A stretch of DNA of 64,000 bases from Alphaproteobacteria bacterium (GTDB lineage Bacteria > Pseudomonadota > Alphaproteobacteria > JBFXJJ01). The notes below the pieces were generated by a model. The model did not search any database and was not told the DNA's origin. It saw only the letters and a program-made list of their open reading frames with translations. The position numbers were made by a program, and so were the translations under genes. Positions 1,954-63,133 of this stretch are shown here, piece by piece. The stretch is taken from the NCBI GenBank assembly GCA_050175015.1, contig JBFXJJ010000003.1, positions 64,001 to 128,000 of the forward strand, written 5' to 3'. How positions within the stretch are numbered: position 1 is the first letter of the stretch; each line of letters begins with the position of its first letter.

Positions 1954-3390
1954 ATGATTATGGATAGTAAGGCTAAAAAATGTTTAAAAAATAAATTGAA
2001 GTATAAATCTAATAAATTAAAGGTTAAAGGCATAGATGAAAATTTTGAAGACCAGCAAGCCGCAGCTGAAAATTATGAAGATCAAAAAGAAGCTCTTTAT
2101 ATGCTTAGAGATTTAAGAGATGGAGCTTTATATATCGGTAAACGCCCAAGTCAGCCGATTAAACCAACTAAGCCAGTAAAACCATTTATTTTTGATGAAA
2201 ATGATCCAAAATCTCAAAAAAAGCTTGAAGAATATGAAAAAAAACTCGCAGATTATAATGAGCACAAAGAAGAATATGAAAAAAAATATAAAGAAGACAT
2301 GGCAACGTATAAAAAAGATCATAACGAATATATATGTAAGACTAAAGATTTAGAATCAATAGAATCAAAGACCGTAAAAATACGTAGTCTTTTGTGGAAC
2401 AAGGGCGTCAGGGAAGCAATTAAAAAAATTCAAGAAACGCTTAATAAACAGGCTGAGGCAGAATATAAAGAGAAGAGTCAAGATGTAAAGAGTGCCAAAG
2501 ATGGCAAAAGTAGTAAAAATACAGAAGGTCCAAAATATTTTAGAATAGCTTTTGATGATACCTTGGTATATCGAAAACATCCCAAAGAACCCTATGAAAC
2601 AGATATTTTAGAAGGACATTATAGCAGAGAAGATAGAACGATTTATCTTCCTCGTTTTACTAAGAAATATACTGGAGGAAGCGAATACATAGAATATTTT
2701 AAAGACTGTGAGCTAGACGAAAAGAATTATCCTGAAGATTTTGATTTTTATGCTAAGATGCTTCCTGTTCTTTTTACTCATGAATTAAGGCATGCTGTTC
2801 AGCATGCAAATGGGATTTCTTATAAGGATGATGAAAATTTAAAGGCGTGGTTTATAAAAGATAGAGTTATGGAAGCAGATGCTGATGCCTTTGCTGCTTA
2901 TGTGGCTTATGATTTAGAATCAAAATACGAAGATATTGAATATTTTACTAATGCCAAAAAAACAGACAAAAAAGACATTTTTGAAACGTTTGAGAATGCT
3001 AGGCGTGGAACAGATAATGGCGTAGCATCTAAAGCGGCGTTTAAAGCTTGGTTTAATAGTGATGAAAGAAAAGACAGCTATGAATCAAAAATGATCAAAA
3101 AACTTTCAAAGGTAAGTAGAGACCATATTTTATTCCTTTATAAAGAATTAGATGTTGAAAAATTATTGAAGGATAGTGCCCTTTATTTAGAAGGCGGTGA
3201 TATGGCAAAATTTGTATTAAGAGACGAAAACTGTGGGATAAGAAAAAAAACAGCAGATGAGATTGTTCAAATTTTTCCTTTTATAGATGATGTAAAAAAA
3301 CAAGCTTATGATTTAGCAACTAGAGATAAGCCCCAAAATAATACTAAAAATATAGCTTTTATGAATGCAAAAATTAAACATTCAAGATAA
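1954..3390 (+). CDS. HExxH zinc-metallopeptidase-like protein without signal peptide (recalls DUF6782-like family); candidate secreted effector
   Basis: SD AAGGAG; THELRHAVQ plus downstream EADADAF third ligand; charged helical N-terminus; C-terminus FMNAKIKHSR. Confidence 0.7.
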   Translation: MIMDSKAKKCLKNKLKYKSNKLKVKGIDENFEDQQAAAENYEDQKEALYMLRDLRDGALYIGKRPSQPIKPTKPVKPFIFDENDPKSQKKLEEYEKKLADYNEHKEEYEKKYKEDMATYKKDHNEYICKTKDLESIESKTVKIRSLLWNKGVREAIKKIQETLNKQAEAEYKEKSQDVKSAKDGKSSKNTEGPKYFRIAFDDTLVYRKHPKEPYETDILEGHYSREDRTIYLPRFTKKYTGGSEYIEYFKDCELDEKNYPEDFDFYAKMLPVLFTHELRHAVQHANGISYKDDENLKAWFIKDRVMEADADAFAAYVAYDLESKYEDIEYFTNAKKTDKKDIFETFENARRGTDNGVASKAAFKAWFNSDERKDSYESKMIKKLSKVSRDHILFLYKELDVEKLLKDSALYLEGGDMAKFVLRDENCGIRKKTADEIVQIFPFIDDVKKQAYDLATRDKPQNNTKNIAFMNAKIKHSR

Positions 3391-3406
3391 AGGATACTTA
3401 ATTTTG

Positions 3407-5320
3407 ATGAAAGCACTTAAGACATTATTGTTATTTATGGTTTTTGCGGTTTCTGGTTGCGATAATGAAACGGTAGAAGATAATGCAGTCCAAAAAGAAG
3501 GAGGTGTTTTTGAAAAGCTGGGATATAACCCAAAGTGGGAAGAAATTCCAAGTGTCAATGAGTTTAAAGATGTTTTTCTAAAAACAACAGGGCAGAGCTT
3601 TGATGATAAAGTAAACGACTGTGCTTATGAGTTAATTAATCCTAAAAGTGATTGTGAAGAAAATTCTGGGTGCGATATAGAAAGAGAGTTAAGAAAAATA
3701 GAGAAAACGATGCTGAAAAGAGCAAACCAACGTTTCGATGACATTATAAATCCTTCTTATTTAGTTAAACAATATGATCCTCAAAGTAAAATTAGTTATT
3801 TTGAAGATATTTGTTATAAATCTCTTTTTTTGGAATTAAATTATCTTGAAAAAGGTCATAAGCTAGCTTGCAAACGTAGTGATTTCTTTAGAAATTTGAT
3901 TGAAGATGGTTCATCTTGGCTTCTAAGCAACAATTACTCAAAAGAAGTTATAGATGATTGGTTTGGTTCGCAATACCTCGTTCCCAAAAAGATCAAATTA
4001 GATAGAATAGAAAATACTATTTATGATCCATATGTTGTAAGAAAAAAAATACTAAAAGTAAGTGAAGATTTACTACTTTATAAAGATTCAAAATATGCTT
4101 CTTTTTGCAAAGCTGTAGCTGAGGGATATGGCTATTTGTTTTATGATAAAGTAGATGTTGATGACAAAGTAAAAAAGATAGAAAAAAATACAGATATAGC
4201 TCAAAGCAACGTTAAACTAAAAGATAAGGGTGAACCTGATTATATCATAGAATTTGATTATGATAATGATGGCAAAAAAGAATTAATTCATAGAACATAT
4301 TTATATGGAGAGCCAGAAAAAGGCAAACCTGAAAACAGCCCAGATTACGGAGATGGAGTGTTTTTGGGAGCAACTCATTGCCAGAGAGAACTACAGAATT
4401 ACTATGATTCTAGCATTAACAGAGATATCTTAACTGTCTATAAAGACAATATAGGAAAGGTAGAAAAGTATCTAAAAAAGATTAAAACTATAGAAGGTTG
4501 GGATCATCTTAAGAGTATAAGAGAAAAGTTTGGTGGTAAAGATCTTGATTATGAATGTTTATACAATATCAAAAAACTTAAAAATGCCGATTTTTTTACG
4601 TTTAAGCATAATCCTTATATAATGTATTCTGATGATTATGAGAACAAAGTAATATCTATAAAAGCCAAAGAGTATAATGTTGAGTGTTATTCTCTCCATC
4701 TACATTCTAAATTATTTGAAGAAACTGATAGTAGAAAACAAATTAATATTGATTATAAAGCTTTGGTAGCGGGATCCTTTCCTATTTACTATGTAAACGA
4801 TGACGTTTATTTTTATGATGAGACCCTTTTAGATGAAATTAAGAAAATATCTTATAATGTTTCTTGGTATGATTCCGATACTAGGAATAAAGTTGAAGAA
4901 TATCTAAAAGATAAGGCAAAAACGATATGCAATGTTGATTTGGATAAAGTTCAATATAAGCCAGAAAACAAGGCAAAGATTTTAAAATTAAGAAAAGATA
5001 ATAGCGAAGAAGCCGTTTTAGATGAAGCTAAAATTGTTTTTAACGATGATATTCCTAAAGAGCAGAAAGAATGTGGACTAAATTTTGAACAAGATAATTG
5101 CACATTATATATTTTAAATAATAGTAATGAAGGTATTAAAGCTAGATATTTTTTACCAATGGCAGCAAAAGAGACAAAAAATACCCAAAGAGAGCTTATG
5201 TATATTAATGATGGCTATAACGACACCGTCATAGAACCTGGTCAGTTTGCTCAAATTGACATTCCTGTCCCTCTTTTCTTAAGTGTACATAAAAAAACAT
5301 GGATAAATAAGTTTTTTTAA
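3407..5320 (+). CDS. Lipoprotein of unknown function, tandem paralog A
   Basis: Start moved to ATG 3407 (SD AAGGA); signal MKALKTLLLFMVFAVSG-C lipobox; DYDNDGKKE Ca-binding-like motif; paralogous to the next two genes. Confidence 0.85.
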   Translation: MKALKTLLLFMVFAVSGCDNETVEDNAVQKEGGVFEKLGYNPKWEEIPSVNEFKDVFLKTTGQSFDDKVNDCAYELINPKSDCEENSGCDIERELRKIEKTMLKRANQRFDDIINPSYLVKQYDPQSKISYFEDICYKSLFLELNYLEKGHKLACKRSDFFRNLIEDGSSWLLSNNYSKEVIDDWFGSQYLVPKKIKLDRIENTIYDPYVVRKKILKVSEDLLLYKDSKYASFCKAVAEGYGYLFYDKVDVDDKVKKIEKNTDIAQSNVKLKDKGEPDYIIEFDYDNDGKKELIHRTYLYGEPEKGKPENSPDYGDGVFLGATHCQRELQNYYDSSINRDILTVYKDNIGKVEKYLKKIKTIEGWDHLKSIREKFGGKDLDYECLYNIKKLKNADFFTFKHNPYIMYSDDYENKVISIKAKEYNVECYSLHLHSKLFEETDSRKQINIDYKALVAGSFPIYYVNDDVYFYDETLLDEIKKISYNVSWYDSDTRNKVEEYLKDKAKTICNVDLDKVQYKPENKAKILKLRKDNSEEAVLDEAKIVFNDDIPKEQKECGLNFEQDNCTLYILNNSNEGIKARYFLPMAAKETKNTQRELMYINDGYNDTVIEPGQFAQIDIPVPLFLSVHKKTWINKFF

Positions 5321-8300
5321 ATAAAAGATTTAAAAGGATACTTAATTTTGATGAAAGCACTTAAGACATTATTGGTATTTATGTTTTTTGTCGTTTCTGG
5401 TTGCGATAAGGCGATAGCAGAAGATAATGCAGTCCAAAAAGAAGGAAGTGTTTTTGAAAAGCTGGGATATAACCCAAAGTGGGAAGAAATCCCAAGTGTT
5501 AATGAGTTTAAAGATGTTTTCCTAAAAACAACAGGGCAGAGCTTTGATGATAGGGTTAACGATTGTGCTTATAAAGCTGTTAGCTCAATAAAAAATGGAG
5601 TAGAAAGGCTTAATTCAGATACAGTAGGTGGTTCTTTAGAAATTTTGGATAACAAGCCTTTTCGTGCTCGTAAGTATGTGCCATATAATTATCATAAATA
5701 TTGCGATGGCGTTTTAGATTCAAACTTAAATTATCCTAAAAAAGGTCATAAACTAGCGTGCAAACGTAGCGATTTTTTTAGAAATTTGGTTGAAGATGGT
5801 TCTTCTTGGTTTTTAAGCAATAAAGATTCTAAAGAATTTGTTAAAAATTGGTTCTGGGGTAAATATGCTCTTCCTAAAGACACTAAAATAGATAACATAG
5901 AAAATACTCTTTATGATCCTTCTTTTGTAAAAGAAAACGTATTTAAAGATACTTTTGAGGCAATTTATTATAACAAAACTAAGGACATCTTTATTTGCAA
6001 AGCTATAGCTGAAGGTTATGGTTTTTATTCCTATGATAAAGTTAGGACAAAAGATGGAATAAAAAAAATAGAAAAAGATACCAATATAGCTCAAAGCCAA
6101 ATTACCTTAGATCATAAACTCGAACCAGATTATATTATGGAGCTTGATTATAACAATGACGGCAAAAGGGAGCTGATTCATAAAATATCTTTGCATTCAA
6201 GCGCAGAGCTTGGATGCCCTAATCCAGATGGCAGTATAAATTTTGATCAATGTGATTGTTGGTGTGATATTTCTGGTATGAAAGAAGATGAAATAAAACC
6301 ATGCGACTGCGACTGTGGATTTGATCGTCCTTTTGTTGCTATTTATGAAAATAATATTGAAGAGGTAAAGCAATATTTAAAAACACCCGATCTTATTATT
6401 AAAGATTGGTATCATTATAATATGATTAAAGAAAAATTTGGTGGGGAAGATCTAAAATATGAATGTTCTTGCTATGTAAGAGATTTTGTTCAGAATACCG
6501 ATTTTTTAACGTTTAGAAATGAAACTTATATCATAGATTTTATTGATAAAAGAAATTATCCTGATAATTATATCGGAGAAGTTTTACATCCCAAGGGAAA
6601 GACAAGTAGATATTCTACGGGAAGATGGTGTGATTCTGTTTGTTATTTAAAGGAAGTGTATTCTTGGGATTTAATAGATGATGACTCTGATTATATAAAG
6701 GCGTCAGTAGTAGATGCTTTTCCTATCTATTATGTAAATGATGACAGCTATCTTTATGATGAAAGCCTTTTAGATGAAATTAAGAAAATATCTTATAATG
6801 TTGCTGATTATGGTTCCGATAGAAGAAACGAGGTTGAAGAATATCTAAAAGATAAGGCAAAAACGTTATGCAATGTTGATTTGGATAAAGTTCAATATAA
6901 GCCAGAAAACAAGGCAAAGATTTTAAAATTAAGAAAAGATAATGGCGAAGAAGCAGTTTTAGATGAAACTAAAATTGTAAAAAATATTACAATTCCAGAA
7001 AAACAAAAGATATGCGGATTAAATCAGAAAAGTGAAAGATGCACATTATACATCTTAAATAATAGTGGCAAAGAAGTTACAGCTAGGCACTTTTATATTT
7101 TAGCATCAAAAGAAACAGGACTTTATCAAGAAGATATAATGTATATTAATGATGGCTATAACGATGCCGTCATAAAACCTGATCAGTTTGCTCAAATTAA
7201 TATCCCTGTCCCCTTCTATTTATATTACATAGAAGATGGAACTGAACAACTGTATGTAAAAGATTAACGATAAGCTTGAGGTTGAGTTTCTAAAAAGCTC
7301 TCAATATAAGGACATTTACTTTTGATGAAGTCACTTAAAGTATTATTGTTATTTATGGTTTTTGTCGTTTCTGGTTGCGATAATGAAGCGGGAAAAGATG
7401 ATGCAGTCCAAAAAGATGGAAGTGTTTTTGAAAAGCTGGGATATAATCCAAAGTGGGAAGAAGTTCCAAGCATCAATGAGTTTAAAGATGTTTTTCTAAA
7501 AACAACAGGGCAGAGCTTTGATGATAGGGTTAACGACTGTGCTTATAAAGCTATTAGCTCAATAAAAAAAGGAGTAGAAAGGCTTAATTCAGATACAGTA
7601 GGTGGTTCTTTAGAAATTTTAGATAACAAGCCTTTTATCACTAATGAAAGTCTACCATATAGTTGTAAAAAAGAATGCTATGAAATCCTATATTCAAACT
7701 TAAATTATCTTAAAAAAGGTCATAAACTAGCTTGCAAACGTAGCGATTTCTTTAGAAATTTGGTTGAAGATGGTTCTTCTTGGCTTTTAAGCAGTAATGT
7801 TTCTCAAGACGATTTAGATGATTGGTTTTGGGATAGATATATAGTTCCTAAAGATGAGATACTTAGCGACATAAATAAGACCATTATAAAGAGTACAACT
7901 TCCACTATTTATGATTTGTTTATTGTAAAAGAAAGAATACTAAGAAAAGGCAATATAATTAAAAAAGGCAGACCTATAATGTCCTTCAAACATCCTGAAT
8001 ATGAGGACGTTTGTAAGACTGTTGCAAACGAGCAAGGATATAGGCTTTTCAATGTTGATATGAAAAATGGGACGGAGAAAACAGGGAAGATAAAGGAAAT
8101 AAAAAAATATACTAATATAGCTCAAAGCAACGTTAAACTAAAAGATAAAGGTGAACCTGATTATATCATAGAATTTGATTATGATAATGATGGCAAAAAA
8201 GAATTAATTCATAGAACATATTTATATGGAGAGCCAGAAAAAGGTAAACCTGAAAATAGCCCAGATTCTGGAGATGGAGTGTTTTTTGGACCAACTCATT

Positions 8301-8526
8301 GTCAGAGAGAACCTCAGAATTATTATGATCCTAGCATTAACAGAGATCTCTTAACTGTCTATAAGGACAATATAGGAAAGGTAAAAAAGTATCTAAGAAA
8401 GACTAAAACTATAGAAGGTTGGGATCATCTTAAGAGTATAAGAGAAAAGTTTGGTGGTAAAGATCTTGATTATGAATGTTTGTATAATATCAAAAAACTT
8501 GAAAATGCCGATTTTTTTACGTTTAA
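4194..8526 (+). repeat. Near-identical ~410-bp block shared by paralog A (4194-4605) and paralog C (8115-8526)
   Basis: Both encode IAQSNVKLKDKGEPDYIIEFDYDNDGKKELIHRTYLYGEPEKGKPENSPD...NADFFTF with few substitutions. Confidence 0.9.
5351..7267 (+). CDS. Lipoprotein of unknown function, tandem paralog B (Cys-rich central module)
   Basis: Lipobox VVSG-C; DYNNDGKRE; CDCWC and CDCDC motifs. Confidence 0.85.
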   Translation: MKALKTLLVFMFFVVSGCDKAIAEDNAVQKEGSVFEKLGYNPKWEEIPSVNEFKDVFLKTTGQSFDDRVNDCAYKAVSSIKNGVERLNSDTVGGSLEILDNKPFRARKYVPYNYHKYCDGVLDSNLNYPKKGHKLACKRSDFFRNLVEDGSSWFLSNKDSKEFVKNWFWGKYALPKDTKIDNIENTLYDPSFVKENVFKDTFEAIYYNKTKDIFICKAIAEGYGFYSYDKVRTKDGIKKIEKDTNIAQSQITLDHKLEPDYIMELDYNNDGKRELIHKISLHSSAELGCPNPDGSINFDQCDCWCDISGMKEDEIKPCDCDCGFDRPFVAIYENNIEEVKQYLKTPDLIIKDWYHYNMIKEKFGGEDLKYECSCYVRDFVQNTDFLTFRNETYIIDFIDKRNYPDNYIGEVLHPKGKTSRYSTGRWCDSVCYLKEVYSWDLIDDDSDYIKASVVDAFPIYYVNDDSYLYDESLLDEIKKISYNVADYGSDRRNEVEEYLKDKAKTLCNVDLDKVQYKPENKAKILKLRKDNGEEAVLDETKIVKNITIPEKQKICGLNQKSERCTLYILNNSGKEVTARHFYILASKETGLYQEDIMYINDGYNDAVIKPDQFAQINIPVPFYLYYIEDGTEQLYVKD

Positions 8527-9253
8527 TGGTAAAAATTACATAATATCTTTTCATAGTTCTATGGCAGAAGTTATACTTATAGATGGAGAAAAGTATAAGA
8601 AGGTTTGCACGGCTAAACTTTTTTTCCCAAGGGAAATAGAAAATATTATAGGTACTACTGATTATATAAAGGCGTCAGTAGCAGGGGCTTTTCCTATCTA
8701 CTATGTAAATGATGACAGCTATCTTTATGATGAAAGCCTTTTAGATGAAATTAAGAAAATATCTTATGAGGTTGCATTTTCTAAACCATCGTTTAGAGAT
8801 AAGGTCGAAGAATATCTAAAAGATAAGGCAAAAACGATATGCAATGTTGATTTGGATAAAGTTCAATATAAGCCAGAAAACAAGGCAAAGATTTTAAAAT
8901 TAAGAAAAGATAATGGCGAAGAAGCAGTTTTAGATGAAACTAAAATTGTAAAAAATATTACAATTCCAGAAAAACAAAAGATATGCGGATTAAATCAGAA
9001 AAGTGAAAGATGCACATTATACATCTTAAATAATAGTGGCAAAGAAGTTACAGCTAGGCACTTTTATATTTTAGCATCAAAAGAAACAGGACTTTATCAA
9101 GAAGATATAATGTATATTAATTATGGCTATAACGATGCCGTCATAAAACCTTCTCAGTTTGCTCAAATCAATATTCCTGTCCCCTTTTATCTATATTACA
9201 TAGAAGATGGAACTGAACAACTGTATGTAAAAGATTAACGATAAGCTTGAGGT
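6687..9253 (+). repeat. Near-identical ~595-bp block shared by paralog B (6687-7282) and paralog C (8658-9253), extending past the stop codon
   Basis: Constant 1971-bp offset; identical 3' flank TAACGATAAGCTTGAGGT. Confidence 0.9.
7325..9238 (+). CDS. Lipoprotein of unknown function, tandem paralog C (mosaic of A and B)
   Basis: Lipobox VVSG-C; central block near-identical to A; N- and C-terminal blocks near-identical to B. Confidence 0.85.
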   Translation: MKSLKVLLLFMVFVVSGCDNEAGKDDAVQKDGSVFEKLGYNPKWEEVPSINEFKDVFLKTTGQSFDDRVNDCAYKAISSIKKGVERLNSDTVGGSLEILDNKPFITNESLPYSCKKECYEILYSNLNYLKKGHKLACKRSDFFRNLVEDGSSWLLSSNVSQDDLDDWFWDRYIVPKDEILSDINKTIIKSTTSTIYDLFIVKERILRKGNIIKKGRPIMSFKHPEYEDVCKTVANEQGYRLFNVDMKNGTEKTGKIKEIKKYTNIAQSNVKLKDKGEPDYIIEFDYDNDGKKELIHRTYLYGEPEKGKPENSPDSGDGVFFGPTHCQREPQNYYDPSINRDLLTVYKDNIGKVKKYLRKTKTIEGWDHLKSIREKFGGKDLDYECLYNIKKLENADFFTFNGKNYIISFHSSMAEVILIDGEKYKKVCTAKLFFPREIENIIGTTDYIKASVAGAFPIYYVNDDSYLYDESLLDEIKKISYEVAFSKPSFRDKVEEYLKDKAKTICNVDLDKVQYKPENKAKILKLRKDNGEEAVLDETKIVKNITIPEKQKICGLNQKSERCTLYILNNSGKEVTARHFYILASKETGLYQEDIMYINYGYNDAVIKPSQFAQINIPVPFYLYYIEDGTEQLYVKD

Positions 9254-40283: not shown

Positions 40284-40718
40284 TCAAAACAAATCGTCGA
40301 CAAAAAGATATAAAGCTTCAGAAAAAGTAGGAAATGAAGCCCCTATGGCAAAATCAATGCGGTCTATGATAAGATATTTGCGTTCTCTGGCGTCATACAC
40401 AAAGAGTTCTTCTGCAACTTTTCCTAAAAGAATTTTGCCTGCAAAGAAGTCATATCCTAGAAAATCAAGATTAACTTCAATTATTCCAGGGAGGATATAA
40501 CCTTGCTTTTCTCTCTCGTGAGATCTTGTTCCAAATAATTCTACTCCATTCCAGATTAGACCGTCAGAAAATTTTAACAAGGAGATATAATTAGGAGGAA
40601 TCGGCGAAAAGTAATGGCTGGTTAACATAGAACTTGAAAATCTAATAGCTTTGTCATCAGCAGGGATAAACATCACAGCATTATCTTTTTTTAATGTCTC
40701 TAAAATTCTGTTAAGCAT
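40284..40718 (-). CDS. SUKH-superfamily (SMI1/KNR4, YrhA-like) immunity-type protein
   Basis: IPPNYISLLKFSDGLIWNGVELFG...ILLG...LFVYD...FPTFSEAL pattern; directly after an HNH-domain gene. Confidence 0.8.
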   Translation of the reverse strand: MLNRILETLKKDNAVMFIPADDKAIRFSSSMLTSHYFSPIPPNYISLLKFSDGLIWNGVELFGTRSHEREKQGYILPGIIEVNLDFLGYDFFAGKILLGKVAEELFVYDARERKYLIIDRIDFAIGASFPTFSEALYLFVDDLF

Positions 40719-40749: not shown

Positions 40750-41760
40750 TTATATATCAGCAGATCTTCCCATAGAACTTTTCATCTTAATGATTTCAAA
40801 AGTACTTTCTAAGAATCCTGCATAAACGCTTCTATCATGTTTGTCTTTGCCTCCAGGAGAGAATGTACCATTGTTAGGAACATAGACTTTCCCTACGGGG
40901 ACTGGAAGCAAAATTCTCTTAGGTTTTGCGCCATTAAATTGTTTTGTAATTTGTAAATCTAAAAACTTATGAAGGTCAATATGAAAGGGGTGTGTTTTTA
41001 TTAAACACAGATTAGAAAAATCATTAGTTCCGAGATAGTCCAGAGGAATTTTCATATGAACATTAAAATTTTCTGGGGCCCTTCCCTTTTTTAATAATTT
41101 TAATCCTTCTTCATCAACACCAGCTTCAAGACACTCATCTTGATGGTGATAACCAACAAATTTTAGAAAGTCTCGTCTAGCACGTTTAAAAGCTTTTCTC
41201 ATATCGTTTTTCCACGCTGTTGATTGAACAACCATCGTAACCTCTTGTAATTCCATACCTGGAAGATTGAAATTTTCAAATTCCCATTCCCAAGTGTTAA
41301 GATCCTCGTTGGTTGTATTCATCGGCGCCATAACTTGCGGCATCATTGGTTGATGCTGCTGCATATACGTTTGCGGCGGTGGAGACATCAACCGTTGTTG
41401 CTGTTGCTGTACGCTTTGAGGAGGCATAGGCTGCCTTGTTTGCGGCATATGATAACCACCATTGTTAGGCGGCATTTGCTGCGGAGCTTGATTTCTATAA
41501 GCTTGTTGTGGTGGCATTTGTTGAGGCGGCATCATTGGAGCTTGCTGATAATTTTCCATATCATTCCATTGATTGCCACTATAATCAGGAACGCCATATC
41601 CAGGATATGGTGACTGATAGCCGTTATTAGGCTGAGAGTAACCGTTATTGGAATTATTATTGTAGCCAGAATATCTCGGGGGATAGGCAGGAGGAACTGC
41701 TGAAGGCGTTTTCTTGACCACCTTCTTGTATCCGCCTTTATTTCCAGTCCAATCCCACAT
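40750..41760 (-). CDS. Protein with P/Q/N/Y/G-rich low-complexity N-terminus and C-terminal polymorphic-toxin-type HNH domain
   Basis: G-x-x-P-x-x-FNVHMKIPLDYLGTNDFSNLCLIKTHPFHIDLH aligns with toxin HNH VHHKLPLDDGGTNDFSNLVLI. Confidence 0.75.
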   Translation of the reverse strand: MWDWTGNKGGYKKVVKKTPSAVPPAYPPRYSGYNNNSNNGYSQPNNGYQSPYPGYGVPDYSGNQWNDMENYQQAPMMPPQQMPPQQAYRNQAPQQMPPNNGGYHMPQTRQPMPPQSVQQQQQRLMSPPPQTYMQQHQPMMPQVMAPMNTTNEDLNTWEWEFENFNLPGMELQEVTMVVQSTAWKNDMRKAFKRARRDFLKFVGYHHQDECLEAGVDEEGLKLLKKGRAPENFNVHMKIPLDYLGTNDFSNLCLIKTHPFHIDLHKFLDLQITKQFNGAKPKRILLPVPVGKVYVPNNGTFSPGGKDKHDRSVYAGFLESTFEIIKMKSSMGRSADI

Positions 41761-41909: not shown

Positions 41910-44156
41910 TTAGCCAGCAACAGCGTTATCTTCTTCAAATTCTTCATATTCTTCCCAACTATCATCTCCAGCTTCTTCATCTTGGATATATTCTTCTAAT
42001 TCTTCGTCATCGTCAGCTACTAAATTGGCTAGGATATCATTGTTGTTGTCTTCTCTTTGAGCCACAATCCAATCAGGAACGAAGGGGGCAGGAGGCAAAT
42101 TTGACATTGCCAGCATTTTTTTATCAAGATAATAACGAGGAGCATCGGCCATAACAGGACGATTAATAAAACCTTGCATAATAATAACTTGTTTCAATGC
42201 TGGTAAGCTGAGCAAGGTAGAGGCACCCACAACAGATGTTCCCTGAAGTGAGCGGTTAACGTTTTTGGAGAAAGGATTACTTTGTTGCGAGAGACCTTCT
42301 TGTCGACTCCAAGATTCGATTTCTACGGTTTTGGTTCCGATCATTTTTTCGAAACGCTGGGCGGTTTGTTCATTGTTTTGAGGGAGAATAATTTTAGCTG
42401 CGGTGGTGGAAATAATAGTTTCAAGGTCATCTTTACCATATTGACCCGAGATTTGTCCCAAATCTTGTCCAATAAGAAGATATGAAACTTTTTGACCACG
42501 ACCAACCGCTGGTCCGTCTTTAACCGCACCTAATTTAGGCATTTGAGGAAACTCGTCGAGTACGAATAATGTTGGGCAAGGTCCCATTCTACCTTCGGTT
42601 TTATTAACGAAGTTAGGCGGGTTAGCAATTAAGTAGCCTGACATCAATTCAACGAATGTCCCAGTAATAATGTTAAGAGCTCTGGCATCAACTTGGTTAA
42701 CTGACATATAAACTGAAATAGGTTTCCATTCCCCAGTTATAGGGTCTCTCATACCTCTAAGGTCTCTAAAAGTAAAATCTGAGAATTTTGTCCTCGATCT
42801 AACAGCAGAGTTTTTGAAAATACCAATACCAGTAAGAGCAGTTGATAAAATAGAACCACGTTCTTTATCTGGAGTACCTGATAATTGGTTAAGTTCAACC
42901 ACAGCACGGTGGGCATAGCCATATTTACGGCACTCATTAACGGCATCATCAAGCAAATCACGCATAGGATCAGCCAAAGCTGCCATTTGATCGCCTTCTT
43001 CAGTTCTTTTTTTTATGTCTGCTGCTTGAGCCATCTGAGCTTCAGTTAACCAATCCAAAATCATAGCAATACTTGGTTCTGCACCGACCCATTCTTCAGG
43101 AAGAAGTTCCCAAGTTCCGATTGGAACATAGCTTTCAAGAGTTAAACTATCTTGTCTTAAAAGGTTAAGAGCATTTGCAGCGTCAAGATCTTGCATATCC
43201 ATATAATAACCTTCAAGCACAGCTTTATCTTCGTGATCAAAGGATTTTTCATAAAATCGAGCGATGAAATAGTCGTTAGCTCTAGCACGCTCGCATTTGT
43301 TAGTAATGTAATGGATAAATCCTGTTAAGGCGTTACGACCTGTTTTTGCCCAGTGAGGGTCAGCTCCGCCTTTTGGCTCTTCAACCAAAACGCTAACCAT
43401 CATATCGACATACATATCACGGGCTGGTCCCATTGATGGCATAGCTGATGGTGAAAGAGCGTTCCAACTTGGATAGTATACACCGTTATCCGGGTCATCT
43501 TCGGCACCCCAGTTAACAATGAATACAGGACCTTCTTTAATGCGTTGACCGCTTGTTTTAAAACAAAGTTCAGGTTTAGGGTCATTAATGATTAGACTTA
43601 TGCCTTTAGAGTTAAAAATTGTTGGAACAACAACTCCAACAGTTTTACCTGTTCCTGGAGGCGCGCAGACTAGAACAGACAAAGTTTCTGGAAGCATTAA
43701 CATACGACCACGCCATTTGCCAAGAACGACAATAAAGCCGTCAAAAAGCCCCATCTTTTTAATATCGTTAAATTCGGCTAAACGACCGTCGCCGTGAATG
43801 GTTGACATAAAGCCATAAGGATTCATAATCAAACCGCCCATAACCAGCATAAAGAATGAGAAAAAAGGCATACTAGGCAGAAGACTTACTGTTGTTAAAA
43901 CCTGCTTTGTTGTAAAAACAAACTTAATCCATTCAAAGTATTTTGACATTAGATATGATGGTTTGAAGGTCACAATTTTAATAAACTTAAGACCAGCACT
44001 AACAGTATCTTTAGAAAAACCATTTTCTATCATATAGGTGACAGGAAAGATAATCATCATAAAGATAAAAGTTGCAACCATAGAAAGTAAAATGGTCATA
44101 AACACCCATTTTATCGCATTATCTCTTTCTTTCCATTCACCGCCTCTGCGAGCCAT
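41910..44156 (-). CDS. virD4: Type IV secretion coupling protein (VirD4/TraG family)
   Basis: N-terminal TM helices; HGDGRLA; Walker A APPGTGKT; INDPKPE; Walker B FVLDEFPQM; QDLGQI...YG; acidic C-terminal tail. Confidence 0.92.
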   Translation of the reverse strand: MARRGGEWKERDNAIKWVFMTILLSMVATFIFMMIIFPVTYMIENGFSKDTVSAGLKFIKIVTFKPSYLMSKYFEWIKFVFTTKQVLTTVSLLPSMPFFSFFMLVMGGLIMNPYGFMSTIHGDGRLAEFNDIKKMGLFDGFIVVLGKWRGRMLMLPETLSVLVCAPPGTGKTVGVVVPTIFNSKGISLIINDPKPELCFKTSGQRIKEGPVFIVNWGAEDDPDNGVYYPSWNALSPSAMPSMGPARDMYVDMMVSVLVEEPKGGADPHWAKTGRNALTGFIHYITNKCERARANDYFIARFYEKSFDHEDKAVLEGYYMDMQDLDAANALNLLRQDSLTLESYVPIGTWELLPEEWVGAEPSIAMILDWLTEAQMAQAADIKKRTEEGDQMAALADPMRDLLDDAVNECRKYGYAHRAVVELNQLSGTPDKERGSILSTALTGIGIFKNSAVRSRTKFSDFTFRDLRGMRDPITGEWKPISVYMSVNQVDARALNIITGTFVELMSGYLIANPPNFVNKTEGRMGPCPTLFVLDEFPQMPKLGAVKDGPAVGRGQKVSYLLIGQDLGQISGQYGKDDLETIISTTAAKIILPQNNEQTAQRFEKMIGTKTVEIESWSRQEGLSQQSNPFSKNVNRSLQGTSVVGASTLLSLPALKQVIIMQGFINRPVMADAPRYYLDKKMLAMSNLPPAPFVPDWIVAQREDNNNDILANLVADDDEELEEYIQDEEAGDDSWEEYEEFEEDNAVAG

Positions 44157-44307: not shown

Positions 44308-45390
44308 TTAAGAATCAATGATTTTCTTAATTTTTGCAATGGTTTCACTGCTTGCTTTTTCGCCATTGTTGCGCGGGAGAACATCTTCTAAAATCTTAAT
44401 TTCATCAGGGCCGCCACTGCCTACTCGGCCGACGCCAACACTTAGTTCAGCCCAAATTTCGAACATATCTTCGGCATTTATGATAGTTCCATTGCTTAAA
44501 ATTACAATGGTTGCAACTTCAAAGGACTCGCCTTGGGCAGAAATTTTTTCAATTAAGCTTTCTTTCGCATCAATAACTTTTCTAACAGGCGATACTCTGT
44601 GGCTGTTTTCAGAGAACCACAAAGGATCTTCATCATTAAATCGTTCTTCATCAGCGAGCCAATCGCCATCTTCAGCGTCAACATAGCACAATACAATCTG
44701 TTCTTCTGCCATAGCAAGGTAAGCAATGTCATTGTTGCCGATTTTAACATCGCTAATAATTTCGTAGTTAGCGGTTTTAATAATATCTTCAATCGCATCA
44801 GCAGAAGATGCTTTTTTGGAAGCCACAGGTTTAGAGACAGGAGCTGCCTGCACTGGAGCTGGAGTGCTTCTAGGTGTCTCTTTGGGTTCCGCAGCAATAG
44901 ATGGCTTAGCAGATATTATTTCTGGTATTGGCTGGGTTTGTTGAGGTTTGTTTTCCGCGGCTACAGGCTCTGGAGCTTCAGGTTTCTTGACTTTAGTTCT
45001 GACTGCGGGGGGTCTTGTTTTTTTATAAGAGAGTTTTTTCTTAAGAGCAGGCTTTTTTTCTGACGGCTTATTAATAGAATTTTTGGCATAAAGCAAAGGA
45101 ACAACAAAAATCGAGAAGAAAACGTTTCTCCAAGGAATTAAGCAAGATGCTGTCCAGCCTGTAAGCCATATAGGGACAATGGCAAATATGGTAATGAAAA
45201 ACATCATTTCGCTGGTTTCATCGACAACCCAGCCTTTGAGCCATAGGCTATAAATATAAGACCAGTGGTCTGGACGCAAAGGATTGAAATTCCAATAAAA
45301 AACCATAACTTCGCGCAATCCGTTAAAGAAAACGAAGCTCCAAAGAAATCCGATAATGATTGTTCGGGTTGTGGTTATTAGTGAACTCAA
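44308..45390 (-). CDS. Membrane-anchored protein with Pro/Lys-rich linker and degenerate NERD-like domain (paralog 1)
   Basis: TTG start with SD GGAG; WNFNPL...W..GW TM module; WLADEERFNDEDPLWFSE...SPV. Confidence 0.7.
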   Translation of the reverse strand: MSSLITTTRTIIIGFLWSFVFFNGLREVMVFYWNFNPLRPDHWSYIYSLWLKGWVVDETSEMMFFITIFAIVPIWLTGWTASCLIPWRNVFFSIFVVPLLYAKNSINKPSEKKPALKKKLSYKKTRPPAVRTKVKKPEAPEPVAAENKPQQTQPIPEIISAKPSIAAEPKETPRSTPAPVQAAPVSKPVASKKASSADAIEDIIKTANYEIISDVKIGNNDIAYLAMAEEQIVLCYVDAEDGDWLADEERFNDEDPLWFSENSHRVSPVRKVIDAKESLIEKISAQGESFEVATIVILSNGTIINAEDMFEIWAELSVGVGRVGSGGPDEIKILEDVLPRNNGEKASSETIAKIKKIIDS

Positions 45391-45499
45391 AGCTGTACTC
45401 CAGCGGTCTTTTATCTTCTAGGATATAACAAACTTTTAAAATATAACTCAAAAAAGGTAAAAAAAAAATAAATTTTAAGAAGTTAAACTAATCTAGATA

Positions 45500-46612
45500 T
45501 TATTCATCTGGAGCGGCAGAAACAATGGCTAGAGAAATTAAATCTAAAATACCTTCGGCGATTTTGGGAGATGATGAAATATCAGTAATAATATTATCAA
45601 TATTATTAATTCCTCCGGAAAAACCTGTTGCGAAACTTCCAACATTAACCCCTAATTTTTGCCATATTTCTATCATATTTTCGCTGTTTAATATTGAGCC
45701 GTAACCTAAAGCCACAACAGCTTCAATATTGATGGGGTAATCTTCAGGTATAAGATTTGCTAAAATAGGGGTTAAAGACTCTTTTGCCTGCAATACGCCA
45801 AATGATGGTGACGGGCTAAAATTTTCTTCAGAAAACCAAATAGGCGGTTCATTATTAAAGCTATCTTCATCTGCAATCCATTCTTTTCCTTTTGGAGTTA
45901 AGCAGATTAAATAGATGCTTTGTGGTGATATTAAAACCAAATCAACAATATGATTTCCTATAGGCATTGATGAAAAAGCGATGTATCCACAACTGACAGC
46001 ATAATCGTGAAGGATTGCTGCTAAATCGTCCCAATCTGGTTCAGGAATAGCTTCTTCCTCAAGGTTAAATTCTTCATCAATATTCATTTCTGGAACAAGC
46101 GGTTCAACATGAGAAGAAGGAAGCAAAGAACTTTCCTCTTCAATCATTACAGCTGAATCCATAGGCTGCTGCGGTGCTGATGATACCGATGGTTTTCTTA
46201 GATTACTCACTGCAGCAGGAAGTGGTTCAGCGGAGGCTTTATTCTTTTTAGAAATAAGCGCAGGAGGTCTTTTAGGTCCATTGGTTTTTATTGGAGCAAT
46301 ATAAACATCAGTTTTTTCTTTTTTAACAAACAGACTGCTTTTTTTTATGCGTTTGTTAATCATATAACAAAAGACAACACCCAAAAGCCACAAAGGTATA
46401 ATTAGAAATAGTGATACAGCGAATAAAATATCGTTAGTTTCTTTTATTATCCAGCCAGACTGCCATTTTTGCGATAATTCTGCCCAGTCACTTGAGTTTA
46501 GGGGATTAAAATCCCATAAATTTATAGCGATAACTTTATAACCTTGAAGATAGAGAAAACTCCAAATCCCGATAAGCAAAATAAATAATAAAAGGCCTAA
46601 AATCTTTTTCAT
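45500..46612 (-). CDS. Membrane-anchored protein with Pro-rich linker and degenerate NERD-like domain (paralog 2)
   Basis: WDFNPL...WQSGW TM module; VDLVLISPQSIYLI...WIADEDSFNNEPPIWFSE...SP. Confidence 0.72.
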   Translation of the reverse strand: MKKILGLLLFILLIGIWSFLYLQGYKVIAINLWDFNPLNSSDWAELSQKWQSGWIIKETNDILFAVSLFLIIPLWLLGVVFCYMINKRIKKSSLFVKKEKTDVYIAPIKTNGPKRPPALISKKNKASAEPLPAAVSNLRKPSVSSAPQQPMDSAVMIEEESSLLPSSHVEPLVPEMNIDEEFNLEEEAIPEPDWDDLAAILHDYAVSCGYIAFSSMPIGNHIVDLVLISPQSIYLICLTPKGKEWIADEDSFNNEPPIWFSEENFSPSPSFGVLQAKESLTPILANLIPEDYPINIEAVVALGYGSILNSENMIEIWQKLGVNVGSFATGFSGGINNIDNIITDISSSPKIAEGILDLISLAIVSAAPDE

Positions 46613-59480: not shown

Positions 59481-59518
59481 TTTTGATAAACTTAAATTTA
59501 AAGAAAGAATACGTCGGA

Positions 59519-60007
59519 ATGACCCAGCAAGCTTTTGATATGATTGATTATGATAATTTAGTCGAAAATTCTTTGAGATATGTTATAAAACAAGCTTTAG
59601 GCATTGTTGAAAACAATGGCCTTCCTGGAGATCACCATTTTTATATTACCTTTCTGACTAGATTCGAAGGGGTTGAGATTCCAGAAACGCTTTTGAAAAT
59701 ATATCCTAAGGAAATGACAATTGTCATTCAGCATCAATTTTATGACCTTAAAGTTAATAACGATTCTTTTTCTGTTACATTAAGTTTTAATAACCTGCCT
59801 CATAATTTGACTATTCCTTATGATGCTGTGACATATTTTGCTGATCCTCATGCAAAATTTGGTTTGAGATTTAATACAGAATATGAAGATGAAGAAAAAA
59901 ACGATTCTGACGACTTAAAAGACAGCGATATTTCTGCTCCTGAAGCGGAAACTGAAGAAGATGATTCTGCCAAAGTTGTTGCTTTGGACGCTTTTCGTAA
60001 AAAATGA
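59519..60007 (+). CDS. sspB: ClpXP adaptor SspB-alpha
   Basis: GLPGDHHFYITF, YPKEMTIVIQHQF, C-terminal KVVALDAFRKK; start moved to ATG 59519 because the longer ORF overlaps ssrA. Confidence 0.93.
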   Translation: MTQQAFDMIDYDNLVENSLRYVIKQALGIVENNGLPGDHHFYITFLTRFEGVEIPETLLKIYPKEMTIVIQHQFYDLKVNNDSFSVTLSFNNLPHNLTIPYDAVTYFADPHAKFGLRFNTEYEDEEKNDSDDLKDSDISAPEAETEEDDSAKVVALDAFRKK

Positions 60008-60629: not shown

Positions 60630-61892
60630 ATGGCAGATAATTATCAAGATAAAGAATTAGAAAAAAAGATTTTAGAATCTCCAGAAAATACTAAGAAATT
60701 TGTTGCCAAAGGGTTTGAAGTTCTTGATGAACTTGGTGCCTTTGAGATGGCTGGCAATGAAAATGATAAGCCGTTGTCAGAAAAAGATATCCAAGCTTTA
60801 ACTATGTTAACATCGCAGTTAGAACAAGTTACTAAATCTATGGATGAAATGTATGGAGAGGCAAATGGCAAATCTATGGAAGCTTGCATAGATAATGCTG
60901 ATACAATCATTCCGGAACCATCTAATCAAGACTTTTGCAGTGTTATGCCTGATGATCGTTTTAATAAAATGATTTTTGATATATCTAAAGAATTAACTCC
61001 AGATTATCGCCGTAAATTTAATAAGTTAAGTCGTGAACAAAAAGTTAATGTAATTGCGGCATCATCTGAAAACATAGCTTTTTTTATTGATAATAAAGAA
61101 TACGGAAGACATCAAGATAACCTGATAAAAATCTATGGAAAACTTTCTAAGGACTTTCCTCAGGTTATTAATCGTAGTCAGGATAAAGAAGCACAGGATT
61201 TGCTCGCAGCTGTAATGCTAGATGGTGCAAGAGAAAAACTGGATAAGGCGTGGCGTGGTAATAATAATGAAGAACGCCTTGAAGCCGTTAAGACGACCTG
61301 CCAAGCTCTTTTTAAAAAAGATGAAAGGGACTATCCTTTTAGAATGTGTTCTGGCGGAAACGGCATAGCTGGTGCTTATGACGAACAGACTGATTTTGGT
61401 GTAGTCGCTGACAGCTTGCTGAAATTTCCTGATTGGTCAATGGCTATGTTTGTAATGATACACGAAAATCAGCATCGTTTACAGCATTTACAAGTTGAAA
61501 AATTAAAAGAGGGCAAAATCACAGAAAACACCGCAGAATATTTCCAAGCCAAGATTTTTAAATCAAATTTTGAAGGCGGTTATTTATCTCCTTTGGGTAA
61601 ACAAGGCAGTCTTCTAGAAAAAATGGTTGTTACTGGTGAGTACGTTAAACAGCCCGTTGAAACTAACGCTAATGAAGCTGGTTATAACTTTAGTAAATAC
61701 TTTTCTGGAGCTGGCGTGGGTTCGATGAAATTTGCAGATAGTTTGGCGAGAGTCACAAGTGATGTCGCTAAAATATTTTTGAAAGCCCGCAAAGCAATTT
61801 TTGCTAATGATGGTTATAGAAAATATGATGCTCAAGATTTGTTCGAGGCAGGTTTGCACTCGATCATAAATGTTAAAAATAATTCAAGATAA
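60630..61892 (+). CDS. HExxH metallopeptidase-like protein, tandem copy 1
   Basis: GIAGAYD, IHENQHRLQ, QPVETNAN; no signal peptide; ends INVKNNSR. Confidence 0.75.
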   Translation: MADNYQDKELEKKILESPENTKKFVAKGFEVLDELGAFEMAGNENDKPLSEKDIQALTMLTSQLEQVTKSMDEMYGEANGKSMEACIDNADTIIPEPSNQDFCSVMPDDRFNKMIFDISKELTPDYRRKFNKLSREQKVNVIAASSENIAFFIDNKEYGRHQDNLIKIYGKLSKDFPQVINRSQDKEAQDLLAAVMLDGAREKLDKAWRGNNNEERLEAVKTTCQALFKKDERDYPFRMCSGGNGIAGAYDEQTDFGVVADSLLKFPDWSMAMFVMIHENQHRLQHLQVEKLKEGKITENTAEYFQAKIFKSNFEGGYLSPLGKQGSLLEKMVVTGEYVKQPVETNANEAGYNFSKYFSGAGVGSMKFADSLARVTSDVAKIFLKARKAIFANDGYRKYDAQDLFEAGLHSIINVKNNSR

Positions 61893-61913
61893 ATATTTTT
61901 AAGGAAAAATTTA

Positions 61914-63110
61914 ATGGCTGAATTAACAAATGGTTTTGAAGCTTTAGAAGAATTAGGAGCTTTTGAACTAGCTGGTAATAAAAATGATAAGCCTTTGAGC
62001 GAGAAAGACATTAATATACTTAAAATTGTTGTTGGTCAGATTGAGCAGACTACCAAAGCAATGAGTGTTATGGCAAATGTGGCAGAAATGCAATCAATAG
62101 AAGCTTGTATTGAGAACGTTCATACAATTAAAACAGATCCTTCAATGCAGGACTTTTGCCAAGTTATGCCCCAAAGCAGTTTTAAGAAAATGATTGATGC
62201 TGCGACTAAAGATATGCCTGAAAATGTTGCTGAAAAGTTTGGGAAACTGAACAAAGAACAAAAAATTAATGTTTTAGCTGCAGCTCCTGAAAATATGTCG
62301 TTTTTCCTAGATAGGAAGCCATATAATGAATTAGAGGAAAAACTTGTTGGGCTTTATGCCAAAGTTTTTAAGGAATATCCTGATATCATTAGTAGAGGAC
62401 AGGATAAAGATGCTCAGGAAGTTTTGACCGAAGTGTTGTCTTCAGGCGCCCGTGAAATGCTCGATAATGCTTGGAAATCGGAAAAACTCCAAGATAGAGT
62501 AGATGCTGTTAGAACTACTTGTCAGGCTCTTTTTAAAAAAGATGAAAGAGATTATCCTTTTAAAATCTGTTCAGGTGGAAATGGTATCGCTGGTGCTTAT
62601 GATGAAAAAGCTGATTTTGGTGTAGTTTCGGATCGTTTGCTTAGTTTCCCAGATTGGTCAATGGCAATGTTCACGACAATTCATGAAAACCAGCATCGTC
62701 TGCAGCATTTGCAGATTAAAAAGTTAAAAGCAGGTGATATCCAAGAAGATACAGCTGAGTATTTTCAGGCTCGCATTTTTAAGGCTAATTTCGAAGGCGG
62801 CTATCTTGTTGACTATACTAAAAGGACAGATCTTGAAAAACAAGCTAATTATGAAGATTACATAATGCAACCTGTAGAACTTAATGCTAATAACGCTGGT
62901 TTTAATTTTGCTGAAAGTTTTTCTGTTGCAATCATTGAACAAAAGTTAGCTTCTTATAAGAATGGAATTCTTTCAAGTCGACGAGCTAAAGAACAGTTAA
63001 AAAGAGATAGAGAAAGAGACCCAGAGAGTCTTACAAGAAAACCTACAAATGATGAATATCGCAAGGCGGGCTTGTTTTCTTTGATGAATGGGAAAAACAA
63101 TTCAAGATAA
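61914..63110 (+). CDS. HExxH metallopeptidase-like protein, tandem copy 2
   Basis: IHENQHRLQ, QPVELNAN; ends MNGKNNSR. Confidence 0.75.
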   Translation: MAELTNGFEALEELGAFELAGNKNDKPLSEKDINILKIVVGQIEQTTKAMSVMANVAEMQSIEACIENVHTIKTDPSMQDFCQVMPQSSFKKMIDAATKDMPENVAEKFGKLNKEQKINVLAAAPENMSFFLDRKPYNELEEKLVGLYAKVFKEYPDIISRGQDKDAQEVLTEVLSSGAREMLDNAWKSEKLQDRVDAVRTTCQALFKKDERDYPFKICSGGNGIAGAYDEKADFGVVSDRLLSFPDWSMAMFTTIHENQHRLQHLQIKKLKAGDIQEDTAEYFQARIFKANFEGGYLVDYTKRTDLEKQANYEDYIMQPVELNANNAGFNFAESFSVAIIEQKLASYKNGILSSRRAKEQLKRDRERDPESLTRKPTNDEYRKAGLFSLMNGKNNSR

Positions 63111-63133
63111 ATATTTTTTTAAGGATTTTTTTA

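Follow-up and report, generated by a model that had tools for sequence, protein, structure and literature searches.

A basic, arginine-terminated C-terminal tag on signal-less proteins of an uncultured alphaproteobacterial lineage and its candidate reader, a VirB/VirD4 secretion system

In the current study, we analyzed a 64,000-nucleotide stretch of DNA from an uncultured alphaproteobacterium (hereafter, the window; positions 64001 to 128000 of contig C3 in the genome that we call G000). An earlier reading of its sequence (the original prediction) had proposed that three HExxH proteins without signal peptides share a C-terminal tail that is recognized by the VirD4-type coupling protein encoded in the same window. 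We find that the tail is real and strongly nonrandom; it is a selected, protein-level C-terminal tag on signal-less proteins, and we estimate that about 40 to 55 proteins of G000 carry it. As for its function, we consider it fairly probable, judging from sequence comparisons, that the tails constitute a clade-wide translocation signal of a VirB/VirD4 (type IVA) secretion system.

A recurrent basic C terminus ending in arginine

The genome studied comprises 2.53 Mb in 49 contigs (35.5% G+C) and is 99.4% complete. Its longest open reading frames (ORFs) of at least 80 amino acids were collected by script and thinned to 2146 nonoverlapping ORFs. Motifs were counted in the 2036 ORFs of at least 100 amino acids, with expected values taken from the internal rate of each pattern.

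Inspection of the 142 Arg-ending tails of G000 revealed a common pattern. Its constant features are a patch rich in Ala, Leu, Ile, or Val at about positions −13 to −7, Lys or Arg at −6 to −3, Arg in last place, and the absence of Asp and Glu from the last 7 to 8 residues; position −2 is occupied by Gly or Ser and, less often, by Thr, Gln, Ala, or Glu. The original prediction had drawn the motif more narrowly, with Asn ahead of the basic residues and Ser at −2. No conservation of Asn at −6 or −7 was seen, and any of the other residues just named may stand in for Ser at −2. Taken as a regular expression, the narrow form (N.K.{2,3}SR) is indeed terminal in 3 of the 2036 ORFs versus 0.04 expected, but it is weak alone, two of the three being paralogs, and the significance of the tail derives instead from the enrichment of the wider motif. 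Thus, K..[GSTQ]R is terminal in 22 of the 2036 ORFs (1.16 expected; P = 8e-21), and [GSTQ]R is terminal in 55 (16.3 expected). Compared with 1902 termini that do not end in Arg, these 55 tails more often lack Asp and Glu throughout the last 8 residues (47 versus 678; P = 8e-14), more often have Lys at −5 (22 versus 228), and more often have at least three hydrophobic residues at −10 to −6 (34 versus 566). A leave-one-out matrix covering −16 to −3, from which the residues used for selection are omitted, likewise separated the [GSTQ]R tails from the rest (Mann-Whitney P = 9e-14). Among C-terminal dipeptides of the 2146 ORFs, SR is the third most overrepresented, with 23 occurrences against 9.1 (position specific) or 5.3 (internal) expected. 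GR is also in excess in G000 (17 versus 6.9 expected), and the count of [GS]K termini (35 versus 20.7 expected) suggests that a few more tagged proteins may end in this way.

An anchored two-component expectation-maximization fit to the last 16 residues served as a first look only; it was overfitted, drew in toxin-antitoxin and insertion sequence paralogs ending in ..KIEEL, and was superseded by the pattern counts, by the leave-one-out matrix, and by a matrix trained externally. The last of these spans 14 residues and was trained on 144 representatives of DUF6782, a family to which one tailed protein of the window belongs (see below), all of them from genomes other than G000. In these 144 tails, Arg has a frequency of 0.69 at −1 (102 of the 144 end in Arg), Gly and Ser have frequencies of 0.24 and 0.23 at −2, Lys and Arg dominate from −6 to −3, and Ala, Leu, Ile, and Val dominate from −13 to −7. 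When the matrix was applied to the termini of G000, 36 scored at least 8 bits, versus 1.2 expected from internal windows (41 versus 4.0 at 6 bits or more, and 66 versus 12.2 at 4 bits or more). Of the 36 best, no more than 5 or 6 belong to DUF6782; the other members are PepF, PepN, HAD, M24, ankyrin, adenosine deaminase, MalQ, and GlgX proteins as well as orphans. The evidence had at first been reckoned as effectively two independent instances; there are in fact some 40 to 55, spread over at least 19 Pfam families and 22 proteins without a family.

Within the window, four genes bear the tail, all on the forward strand. The first (1954..3390) encodes a putative metallopeptidase of 478 amino acids with HELRH at residues 276 to 280 and no signal peptide. 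It is a member of DUF6782 (PF20573; E = 3.5e-28), which it matches at 98.9 bits against a cutoff of 27 and with the HELRH motif present. Its tag, the last 14 residues (3346..3387; ..FMNAKIKHSR), scores 10.2 bits on the matrix from other genomes. The remaining three are orphan HExxH paralogs. Two of them, 54% identical to one another, are encoded at 60630..61892 (420 amino acids, ending in IINVKNNSR; 5.8 bits) and 61914..63110 (398 amino acids, ending in LMNGKNNSR; 5.3 bits). The third (63134..64000; 9.5 bits), which is absent from the earlier list, is cut by the end of the window; in full, it has 396 amino acids and ends in ..LMNGKSR at C3:128324. For the three genes known from the start, the description given in the original prediction was accurate with regard to the tails, the HExxH motifs (HELRH and HENQH), and the want of a Sec or Tat signal, the three N termini being hydrophilic and none being flagged by a hydropathy screen. 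The same holds for the shared 12-mer, ATTCAAGATAAA, whose only exact copies in the window are those at 3380, 61882, and 63100 (allowing one mismatch gives 5 matches versus 2.07 expected). The identity of the DNA is confined to this 12-mer, and the flanking bases differ.

When 5.8 billion cluster representatives were searched with the paralog family at 60.6 to 64 kb, no homologue turned up beyond the contig that carries it; the paralogs (60630 to 64000) gave no match in Pfam, and their membership in DUF6782 is not demonstrable. When they were aligned with the DUF6782 profile (hhalign), only the HExxH region aligned (E = 0.13). Their neighbors in the ESM Atlas are DUF6782, DUF3920, and SprT-like clusters, which we treat as leads only, and an AlphaFold2 model of one paralog from a 3-row alignment was too poor for use (mean pLDDT, 51.6).

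It had also been suggested that the tail might spread by recombination at the 3′ ends of genes, and this suggestion did not hold up: there is no DNA similarity past the 12-mer, five Arg codons are used, and sharing of 12 to 13 nucleotides between unrelated tails is common. Among the 58 tails that we selected for closer study, the terminal Arg is encoded by AGA (28), CGT (15), AGG (6), CGC (4), or CGA (3), which matches genome usage, and the stop codon is TAA (46), TAG (7), or TGA (5). In 1653 pairs of these 58 tail genes, a count that takes in pairs with the window paralogs, the longest common string is 12 nucleotides in 13 pairs and 13 nucleotides in 5; the only longer shared strings, of 20 and 24 nucleotides, are those between the window paralogs themselves. 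The identity of the 12-mer reflects the use of the commonest codons, and because matches of this length are common among tail pairs, the shared DNA can be accounted for without recombination. The use of five Arg codons together with all three stop codons points instead to selection on the protein rather than on the DNA. A DNA-level motif was considered and rejected on the basis of the differing flanks, the five Arg codons, and the frequent short sharing.

Carriers of the tail and their relatives

The 58 carriers fall into 19 Pfam groups and 22 proteins without a family. DUF6782 accounts for seven, HAD hydrolases for five, pentapeptide-repeat proteins for four, PepN (M1) for three, PepF (M3) and RNase J-like metallo-β-lactamases for two each, and Xaa-Pro aminopeptidase (M24) for one. 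Further enzymes represented once are a GlgX-type isoamylase, MalQ, adenosine deaminase, an inosine-uridine nucleoside hydrolase, an aldose epimerase, and a carboxylesterase; the other single carriers are ankyrin, TPR, NADAR, and BPL_N proteins, an AAA_30 helicase, and a Tad-like protein that is probably a false pick. In the enzyme carriers, the last Pfam domain ends 15 to 75 residues before the stop codon (up to about 170 in MalQ), and in none of the 58 does a Pfam family extend over the tail. On sequence criteria, the carriers look cytosolic. By hydropathy, a signal-peptide-like N terminus was seen in 4 of the 58 versus 516 of 1978 other proteins (P = 3.6e-4), and two of these four hydrophobic N-terminal peaks are start codon artifacts; transmembrane-like segments were seen in 2 of the 58 versus 579 of the 1978 (P = 1e-6). 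Over the last 20 residues, carriers have a net charge of +3.7, and the others have one of +0.3.

Comparison with 40 relative genomes, all of which are related to G000 only at the level of the class and include no closer kin, indicates how the tail is joined to these proteins. The M24 aminopeptidase carries it in G000 (..VKAALTNSQSR) and in a second genome, G002, at 55% identity (..SLAKAKVATGR), and it is missing from 28 other orthologues, which stop at a conserved ..WL..AT.P[LIV]. PepF carries it in G000 (..VAAKALNNKQR, and in a second copy) and, at 59% identity, in G018 (..VVKAAVQNKQR); it is missing from 26 complete orthologues, which end at ..IDELE... One tail-less row in each of these two comparisons comes from an unpublished genome (G040). 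Adenosine deaminase has the tail in G000, G018, and G002, where it ends in GR, TR, and SR, and lacks it in seven others. As judged from these alignments, the tail is an extension that orthologues in other alphaproteobacteria lack and that diverged relatives have kept. It is therefore not specific to one genome, as had been supposed: it occurs on these orthologues in G002 and G018, two genomes placed in other families than G000, and 106 of 151 DUF6782 representatives from public metagenomes end in Arg. The G+C content of G018 is 52% versus 35% in G000, which rules out base composition as an explanation of the motif. One or two plausible tails were seen in 127 kb of G002 (111 ORFs), a sample too small for statistics, and in a 358-kb sample of G018 we found four to six by eye, three of them in adjacent genes. 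These three genes of G018 (contig C11; L154:12388-16646) end in ..FMKRHNQGR, ..ALSARRSR, and ..AQLAGKAGR, and DUF6782 matches occur in the same stretch.

DUF6782 offers the broadest view of the tail outside G000. A profile of nine DUF6782 proteins retrieved 1406 cluster representatives at an E value of ≤0.001 (mutually no more than 50% identical). Of the best 151 of these 1406, the 106 that end in Arg do so mainly as SR (34) and GR (31), followed by ER (10), TR (7), AR (6), QR (5), and VR (4); another 7 of the 151 end in RG. In the library searched, we found no paper on DUF6782 and likewise none on secretion signals in this lineage, an absence that is no proof that the motif is unpublished. 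The prevalence of the [GS]R tag in the family appears not to have been noted before.

Directly 3′ of the DUF6782 gene of the window lie three tandem genes for paralogous lipoproteins of about 636 to 639 amino acids (3410..9238, forward strand) with the lipobox ..VSGC. Translation probably does not start at the ATG at 3365, which overlaps the DUF6782 stop codon; the signal sequence of the first lipoprotein begins at 3410. These paralogs are 52 to 61% identical, and a fourth copy lies at C5:63855-65774. A gene for an ABC (ATP-binding cassette) exporter (9419-11167) follows the array. For each of the three DUF6782 genes closest to the window copy, a lipoprotein or signal peptide gene of a related family lies on the 3′ side (3410-9238 in the window, C8:87382, and C10:12510), and two other DUF6782 genes are followed by that of a conserved 203-residue cytosolic protein. 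From this arrangement, it is possible that the lipoprotein array is a partner or immunity-like set of a DUF6782 system. By analogy, the DUF6782/partner pairs may resemble effector-immunity pairs, with targets that could be bacterial or eukaryotic.

VirB/VirD4 genes and the reading of the tag

By analogy with known systems, a type IV secretion system (T4SS) of the VirB/VirD4 kind is the best candidate for the reader of the tag. In the loci that we fetched, DUF6782 ORFs end in Arg or Lys in 13 of 15 cases where a VirD4 orthologue of at least 55% identity is present, versus 1 of 10 where it is not (Fisher's exact test, P = 2.4e-4; G032, whose 50% match is split, was excluded). For scale, in a 401-genome sample of the class, DUF6782 was found above its cutoff in 26 genomes and VirD4 at an E value of ≤1e-60 in 37. 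A VirD4-negative control genome (G014; 41% G+C, 400 kb) gave no enrichment of the motif (4 of 324 termini versus 3.7 expected). The tags also have the marks of a type IVA signal: they sit at the free C terminus, they are net positive and avoid acidic residues, the proteins that bear them have no Sec-like N termini, and cognate VirB/VirD4 genes are present.

The proposed tag receptor is a VirD4-type coupling protein of 748 amino acids with two N-terminal transmembrane helices (41910..44156, reverse strand; PF02534, 5e-53, with PF12696 and PF10412). Its last ~45 residues form an Asp/Glu-rich extension (41913..42047). It matches the NCBIfam VirD4/TraG models, in all cases below their cutoffs, and a sequence search of the PDB gave no match at an E value of ≤0.001. 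In contigs representing one genome per species, it has 361 relatives (about 60 to 75% identity); the best 80 of the 361 are 61 to 75% identical to it, and the records of these 80 are nearly all those of uncultured Alphaproteobacteria or Rhodospirillales metagenome-assembled genomes (two bear Lactobacillaceae/Lactobacillales titles), many of them with isolate names that refer to gut, rumen, or feces. The operon, whose accessory proteins belong to no Pfam family, is kept in about 50 to 76 of these 80 related loci (L170-L249). On the reverse strand, two genes for paralogous membrane proteins of 360 and 370 amino acids (44308..46612; cluster 0, present in 76 of the 80 loci) lie upstream of virD4. 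Downstream are a 336-residue protein of a family with the motif MWDW.G.., ending in ..SSMGRSADI (40750..41760), and, as the last gene of the operon, a small YrhA-family protein (40284..40718; NF038335, E = 5.5e-19; cluster 4, present in 50 of the 80 loci). In 35 of 51 loci, the MWDW.G.. protein has ..GR as its C terminus, and an upstream family of about 380 to 500 amino acids ends in GR or SR in 15 of 44; GR is the last dipeptide of 52 of the 893 ORFs of the VirD4 loci, which span 31 to 56% G+C. A dehydrogenase gene separates the operon from a gene, about 4 kb upstream, for a 704-residue Sel1-repeat protein (48040-50154, forward strand; 8 repeats, E = 1.5e-67) with a signal peptide and without the tag.

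Elsewhere in G000, the genes of the presumptive channel are scattered, although the set looks complete. A single VirB4 is encoded on contig C9 (TIGR00929, 1e-105), and an islet on C4 contains two virB8 genes, virB9, the gene for a 1563-residue β-flower/RHS protein, virB10, and virB11. At C3:194.8-202.4 kb, four large ORFs gave weak TrbL/VirB6 matches in three frames, one of which was confirmed by hmmscan (three to four VirB6-like genes). The core genes on C4 (C4:43417-53394; L250:5417-15394) are elaborated in an unusual manner: VirB10 (1760 amino acids) is fused to about 1400 residues of β-flower repeats, and the 1563-residue β-flower/RHS/DUF3659 protein is inserted between virB9 and virB10. 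VirD4-like genes are three in number, namely, the window copy, one on C16 (1013 amino acids), and one on the small contig C33. The C16 gene (C16:22010-32946; L009:7010-17946) encodes a long C-terminal extension and overlaps an upstream pentapeptide-repeat gene; downstream of it are a glycogen phosphorylase gene on the opposite strand and then, a few kilobases away, those of three tagged HAD paralogs. Four further tagged proteins are pentapeptide-repeat proteins. A type IVb pilus set (TcpQ, a secretin, PilO, a PilP-like protein, a T2SSE ATPase, and T2SSF; C9:22606-30651 or L008:2606-10651) lies about 4 kb from virB4. This proximity raised the question of an IncI- or Dot/Icm-like (type IVB) system, which was rejected: the ATPase beside the pilus genes is a VirB4, VirB8, -9, -10, and -11 are present, and the tails avoid Glu and Asp. 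The Dot/Icm signal is a C-terminal, Glu-rich E-block. TssC, the sheath gene of type VI secretion systems, was not found in the 99.4%-complete genome.

In the mechanism that we propose, the tail would be a modular signal, an unstructured extension of about 13 to 75 residues of which the last 14 bear the motif. Carriers would be recruited by it to the chromosomal, scattered VirB/VirD4 system of G000 and its relatives, where VirD4, perhaps through its acidic C-terminal extension, an all-alpha domain, or both, would bind the tag and feed the protein into the channel. The cargo (DUF6782/HExxH peptidase-like proteins, PepN, PepF, and M24 peptidases, HAD phosphatases, glycogen- and nucleoside-degrading enzymes, and repeat proteins) would then act in a target cell. 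When a complex was predicted between VirD4 (residues 115 to 748, 60-row alignment) and the C-terminal 50 residues of the window's DUF6782 protein (9-row alignment), the score was 0.02 (mark, 0.32), which counts neither way.

Several points weigh against a VirB/VirD4 reading. VirD4 binding and translocation are steps that we infer from co-occurrence and analogy, and relatedness among the genomes inflates and confounds the co-occurrence test. In G023, whose VirD4 is 65% identical to that of the window, 255 kb of sequence yielded no excess of the tag ([GSTQ]R at 2 of 213 termini versus 2.1 expected); not every genome with this VirD4, therefore, uses the tag, or uses it in this form. In the sample of G018, the signal was weak (K..[GSTQ]R, 2 versus 0.21 expected). 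In G000 and in a locus that apparently belongs to G023 (L238), four more residues follow the GR of the VirD4-neighbor protein. Some of the tagged proteins, such as the M24 aminopeptidase and adenosine deaminase, are single-copy, housekeeping-type enzymes, which would be odd for exported proteins. Our genes rest on a longest-ORF heuristic and our signal peptide calls on hydropathy only, and the set of 58 carriers was chosen by eye, the probable false pick included. Finally, TolC-like proteins are present and the window contains ABC and HlyD genes, which would permit a type I route.

Two other functions have to be weighed, both of which we regard as unlikely. The tail might be an intracellular appendage, such as a basic amphipathic helix that binds membranes or nucleic acids, a localization tag, or a C-terminal degron recognized by a protease or adaptor. 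Such a role would sit more easily with the tagging of single-copy housekeeping enzymes, and the combination of a hydrophobic patch with basic residues does resemble membrane-targeting helices; yet Arg is the last residue in 69% of the 144 independent DUF6782 tails, which argues for recognition of a free C terminus and not of a helix. As for a degron, a gene for an SspB adaptor (59453-60007) lies just upstream of the paralog array, but known alphaproteobacterial degrons end in hydrophobic residues or Ala. Moreover, effector-like families (ankyrin, TPR, and pentapeptide proteins and orphan peptidases) and paralog expansions abound among the carriers, and the phyletic link to VirD4 would go without explanation if the tail acted within the cell.

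Slightly harder still to credit is the view that the tag does direct export or sorting but is read by a machine other than VirD4, for example, an exporter of type I (ABC/HlyD/TolC) or a pathway not yet described. The carriers have no RTX or other type I substrate features, and the basic character of their tails contrasts with the acidic one of classical type I substrates. Type I signals are likewise C-terminal and uncleaved, and TolC-like proteins are represented in G000 by 9 matched stretches in about 5 open frames; G023, in addition, keeps its VirD4 orthologue without tag enrichment. On the other hand, DUF6782 tails track the VirD4 orthologue, and the properties of the last six residues match those of VirB/VirD4 substrates as described in PMC8740702.

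An origin by chance, AT-rich composition, or plain paralogy is very improbable, and we consider it refuted. Two of the first three proteins are paralogs, a hand-picked set may be biased, and Lys/Asn-rich termini are common in AT-rich genomes (Lys is last in 361 of the 2146 ORFs); nevertheless, the enrichment over internal rates is 19- to 30-fold, the motif recurs at 52% G+C in G018 and across loci of 31 to 56% G+C, and it is absent from the control genome, occurs on unrelated families, and is encoded with five Arg codons. We give next to no credence to a cargo-loading peptide for the encapsulin of the window (51007-51825; PF04454), since although encapsulin and EncFtn genes are present and cargo peptides (consensus of the GSLGIGSLK type), which have alternating hydrophobic residues and a basic end, are likewise short C-terminal sequences, the operon's own EncFtn ends in ..SSLGLGKL, which is of the classical type and unlike the [GS]R tails, and some 50 cargo proteins of up to 965 amino acids are implausible for a small shell. 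The encapsulin (Linocin_M18) and EncFtn-like genes form an operon on the reverse strand (51007-52162).

Type IV secretion signals are notoriously degenerate, and repertoires usually are established by experiment; the signal described here appears sharp enough for the cargo to be predicted from sequence, and in a lineage without a cultured member among the genomes that we have seen. The tag also gives DUF6782 its first functional handle, and it suggests that housekeeping enzymes can become exported effectors through a short added tail. One bolder, rather unlikely possibility is that a widespread, uncultured lineage with an rvh-like VirB/VirD4 system (see below) injects dozens of ordinary catabolic enzymes into a target cell. 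Each enzyme would be made an effector by an added [Gly/Ser]-Arg tail of 13 to 75 residues, and the injected set would include aminopeptidases, oligopeptidases, HAD phosphatases, glycogen-debranching and -disproportionating enzymes, a nucleoside hydrolase, adenosine deaminase, RNase J-like nucleases, and DUF6782 peptidases, as might befit a contact-dependent, parasitic or predatory “digest-your-neighbor” lifestyle. Other bacteria may be the targets, as the effector/lipoprotein pairs hint. On this view, the sharpness of the tag would make it possible to read the full effector set of any genome of the clade from its sequence.

Comparison with known type IV secretion systems

Type IV secretion signals have no general consensus, but substrates of the Agrobacterium system, among them VirF, VirE2, VirE3, and VirD5, share a C-terminal, Arg-rich motif (Vergunst et al. 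2005, as cited in PMC10025392). The tag resembles that signal in that it lies at the extreme C terminus, is positively charged with Arg being important, and occurs on proteins with no Sec signal; moreover, the Agrobacterium system is also type IVA and uses VirD4. The two differ in that here the last residue is Arg in about 70% of tails, following Gly or Ser and with a hydrophobic patch upstream, which makes for a sharper and position-fixed signal from whose sequence export is predicted. The organisms differ as well, ours being uncultured alphaproteobacteria whose relatives bear gut and rumen record titles.

The effectors of Xanthomonas (X-Tfe) have tails that, from −6 to −1, contain Arg and no acidic residues and are rich in small and hydrophobic residues, and they are paired with lipoprotein immunity genes (PMC8740702). 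The proteins described here are likewise modular, with varied catalytic domains that would be those of effectors, and partner genes for lipoproteins are found, three DUF6782 genes being so followed. Unlike in X-Tfe, these partner genes lie downstream and not upstream, and there is no XVIPCD of about 120 residues, the extension being as short as 13 to 15 residues. No family of the XVIPCD type was matched in the 58 carriers in Pfam, which presumably holds an XVIPCD model.

In its genomic layout, the system recalls the rvh T4SS of Rickettsiales, for which scattered islets, a duplicated VirB8, and several VirB6-like paralogs have been described (Gillespie et al. 2009; PMC2653234). As in rvh, the VirB/VirD4 genes are chromosomal and lie in islets (virB4 on C9; two virB8 genes, virB9, virB10, and virB11 on C4; and VirB6-like genes and virD4 on C3), and the system presumably serves to translocate effectors and not for conjugation. 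A duplicated virB4 and virB9 and the lack of virB5 are further features of rvh; in G000, the VirB4 (PF03135) and VirB9 (PF03524) models gave one match each. Unlike that of rvh, the VirB10 of G000 is fused to β-flower repeats with a β-flower/RHS protein encoded between virB9 and virB10, and its VirD4 is encoded in a conserved operon of its own together with two membrane protein paralogs. The acidic extension of this VirD4 also has counterparts, in that Asp/Glu-rich C-terminal domains of VirD4-type coupling proteins are thought to widen the range of effectors (PMC7434980). Set beside the known type IVA signals, and with no domain of the size of XVIPCD or BID, the tag fits their kind but is far sharper and is fixed to the last residue.

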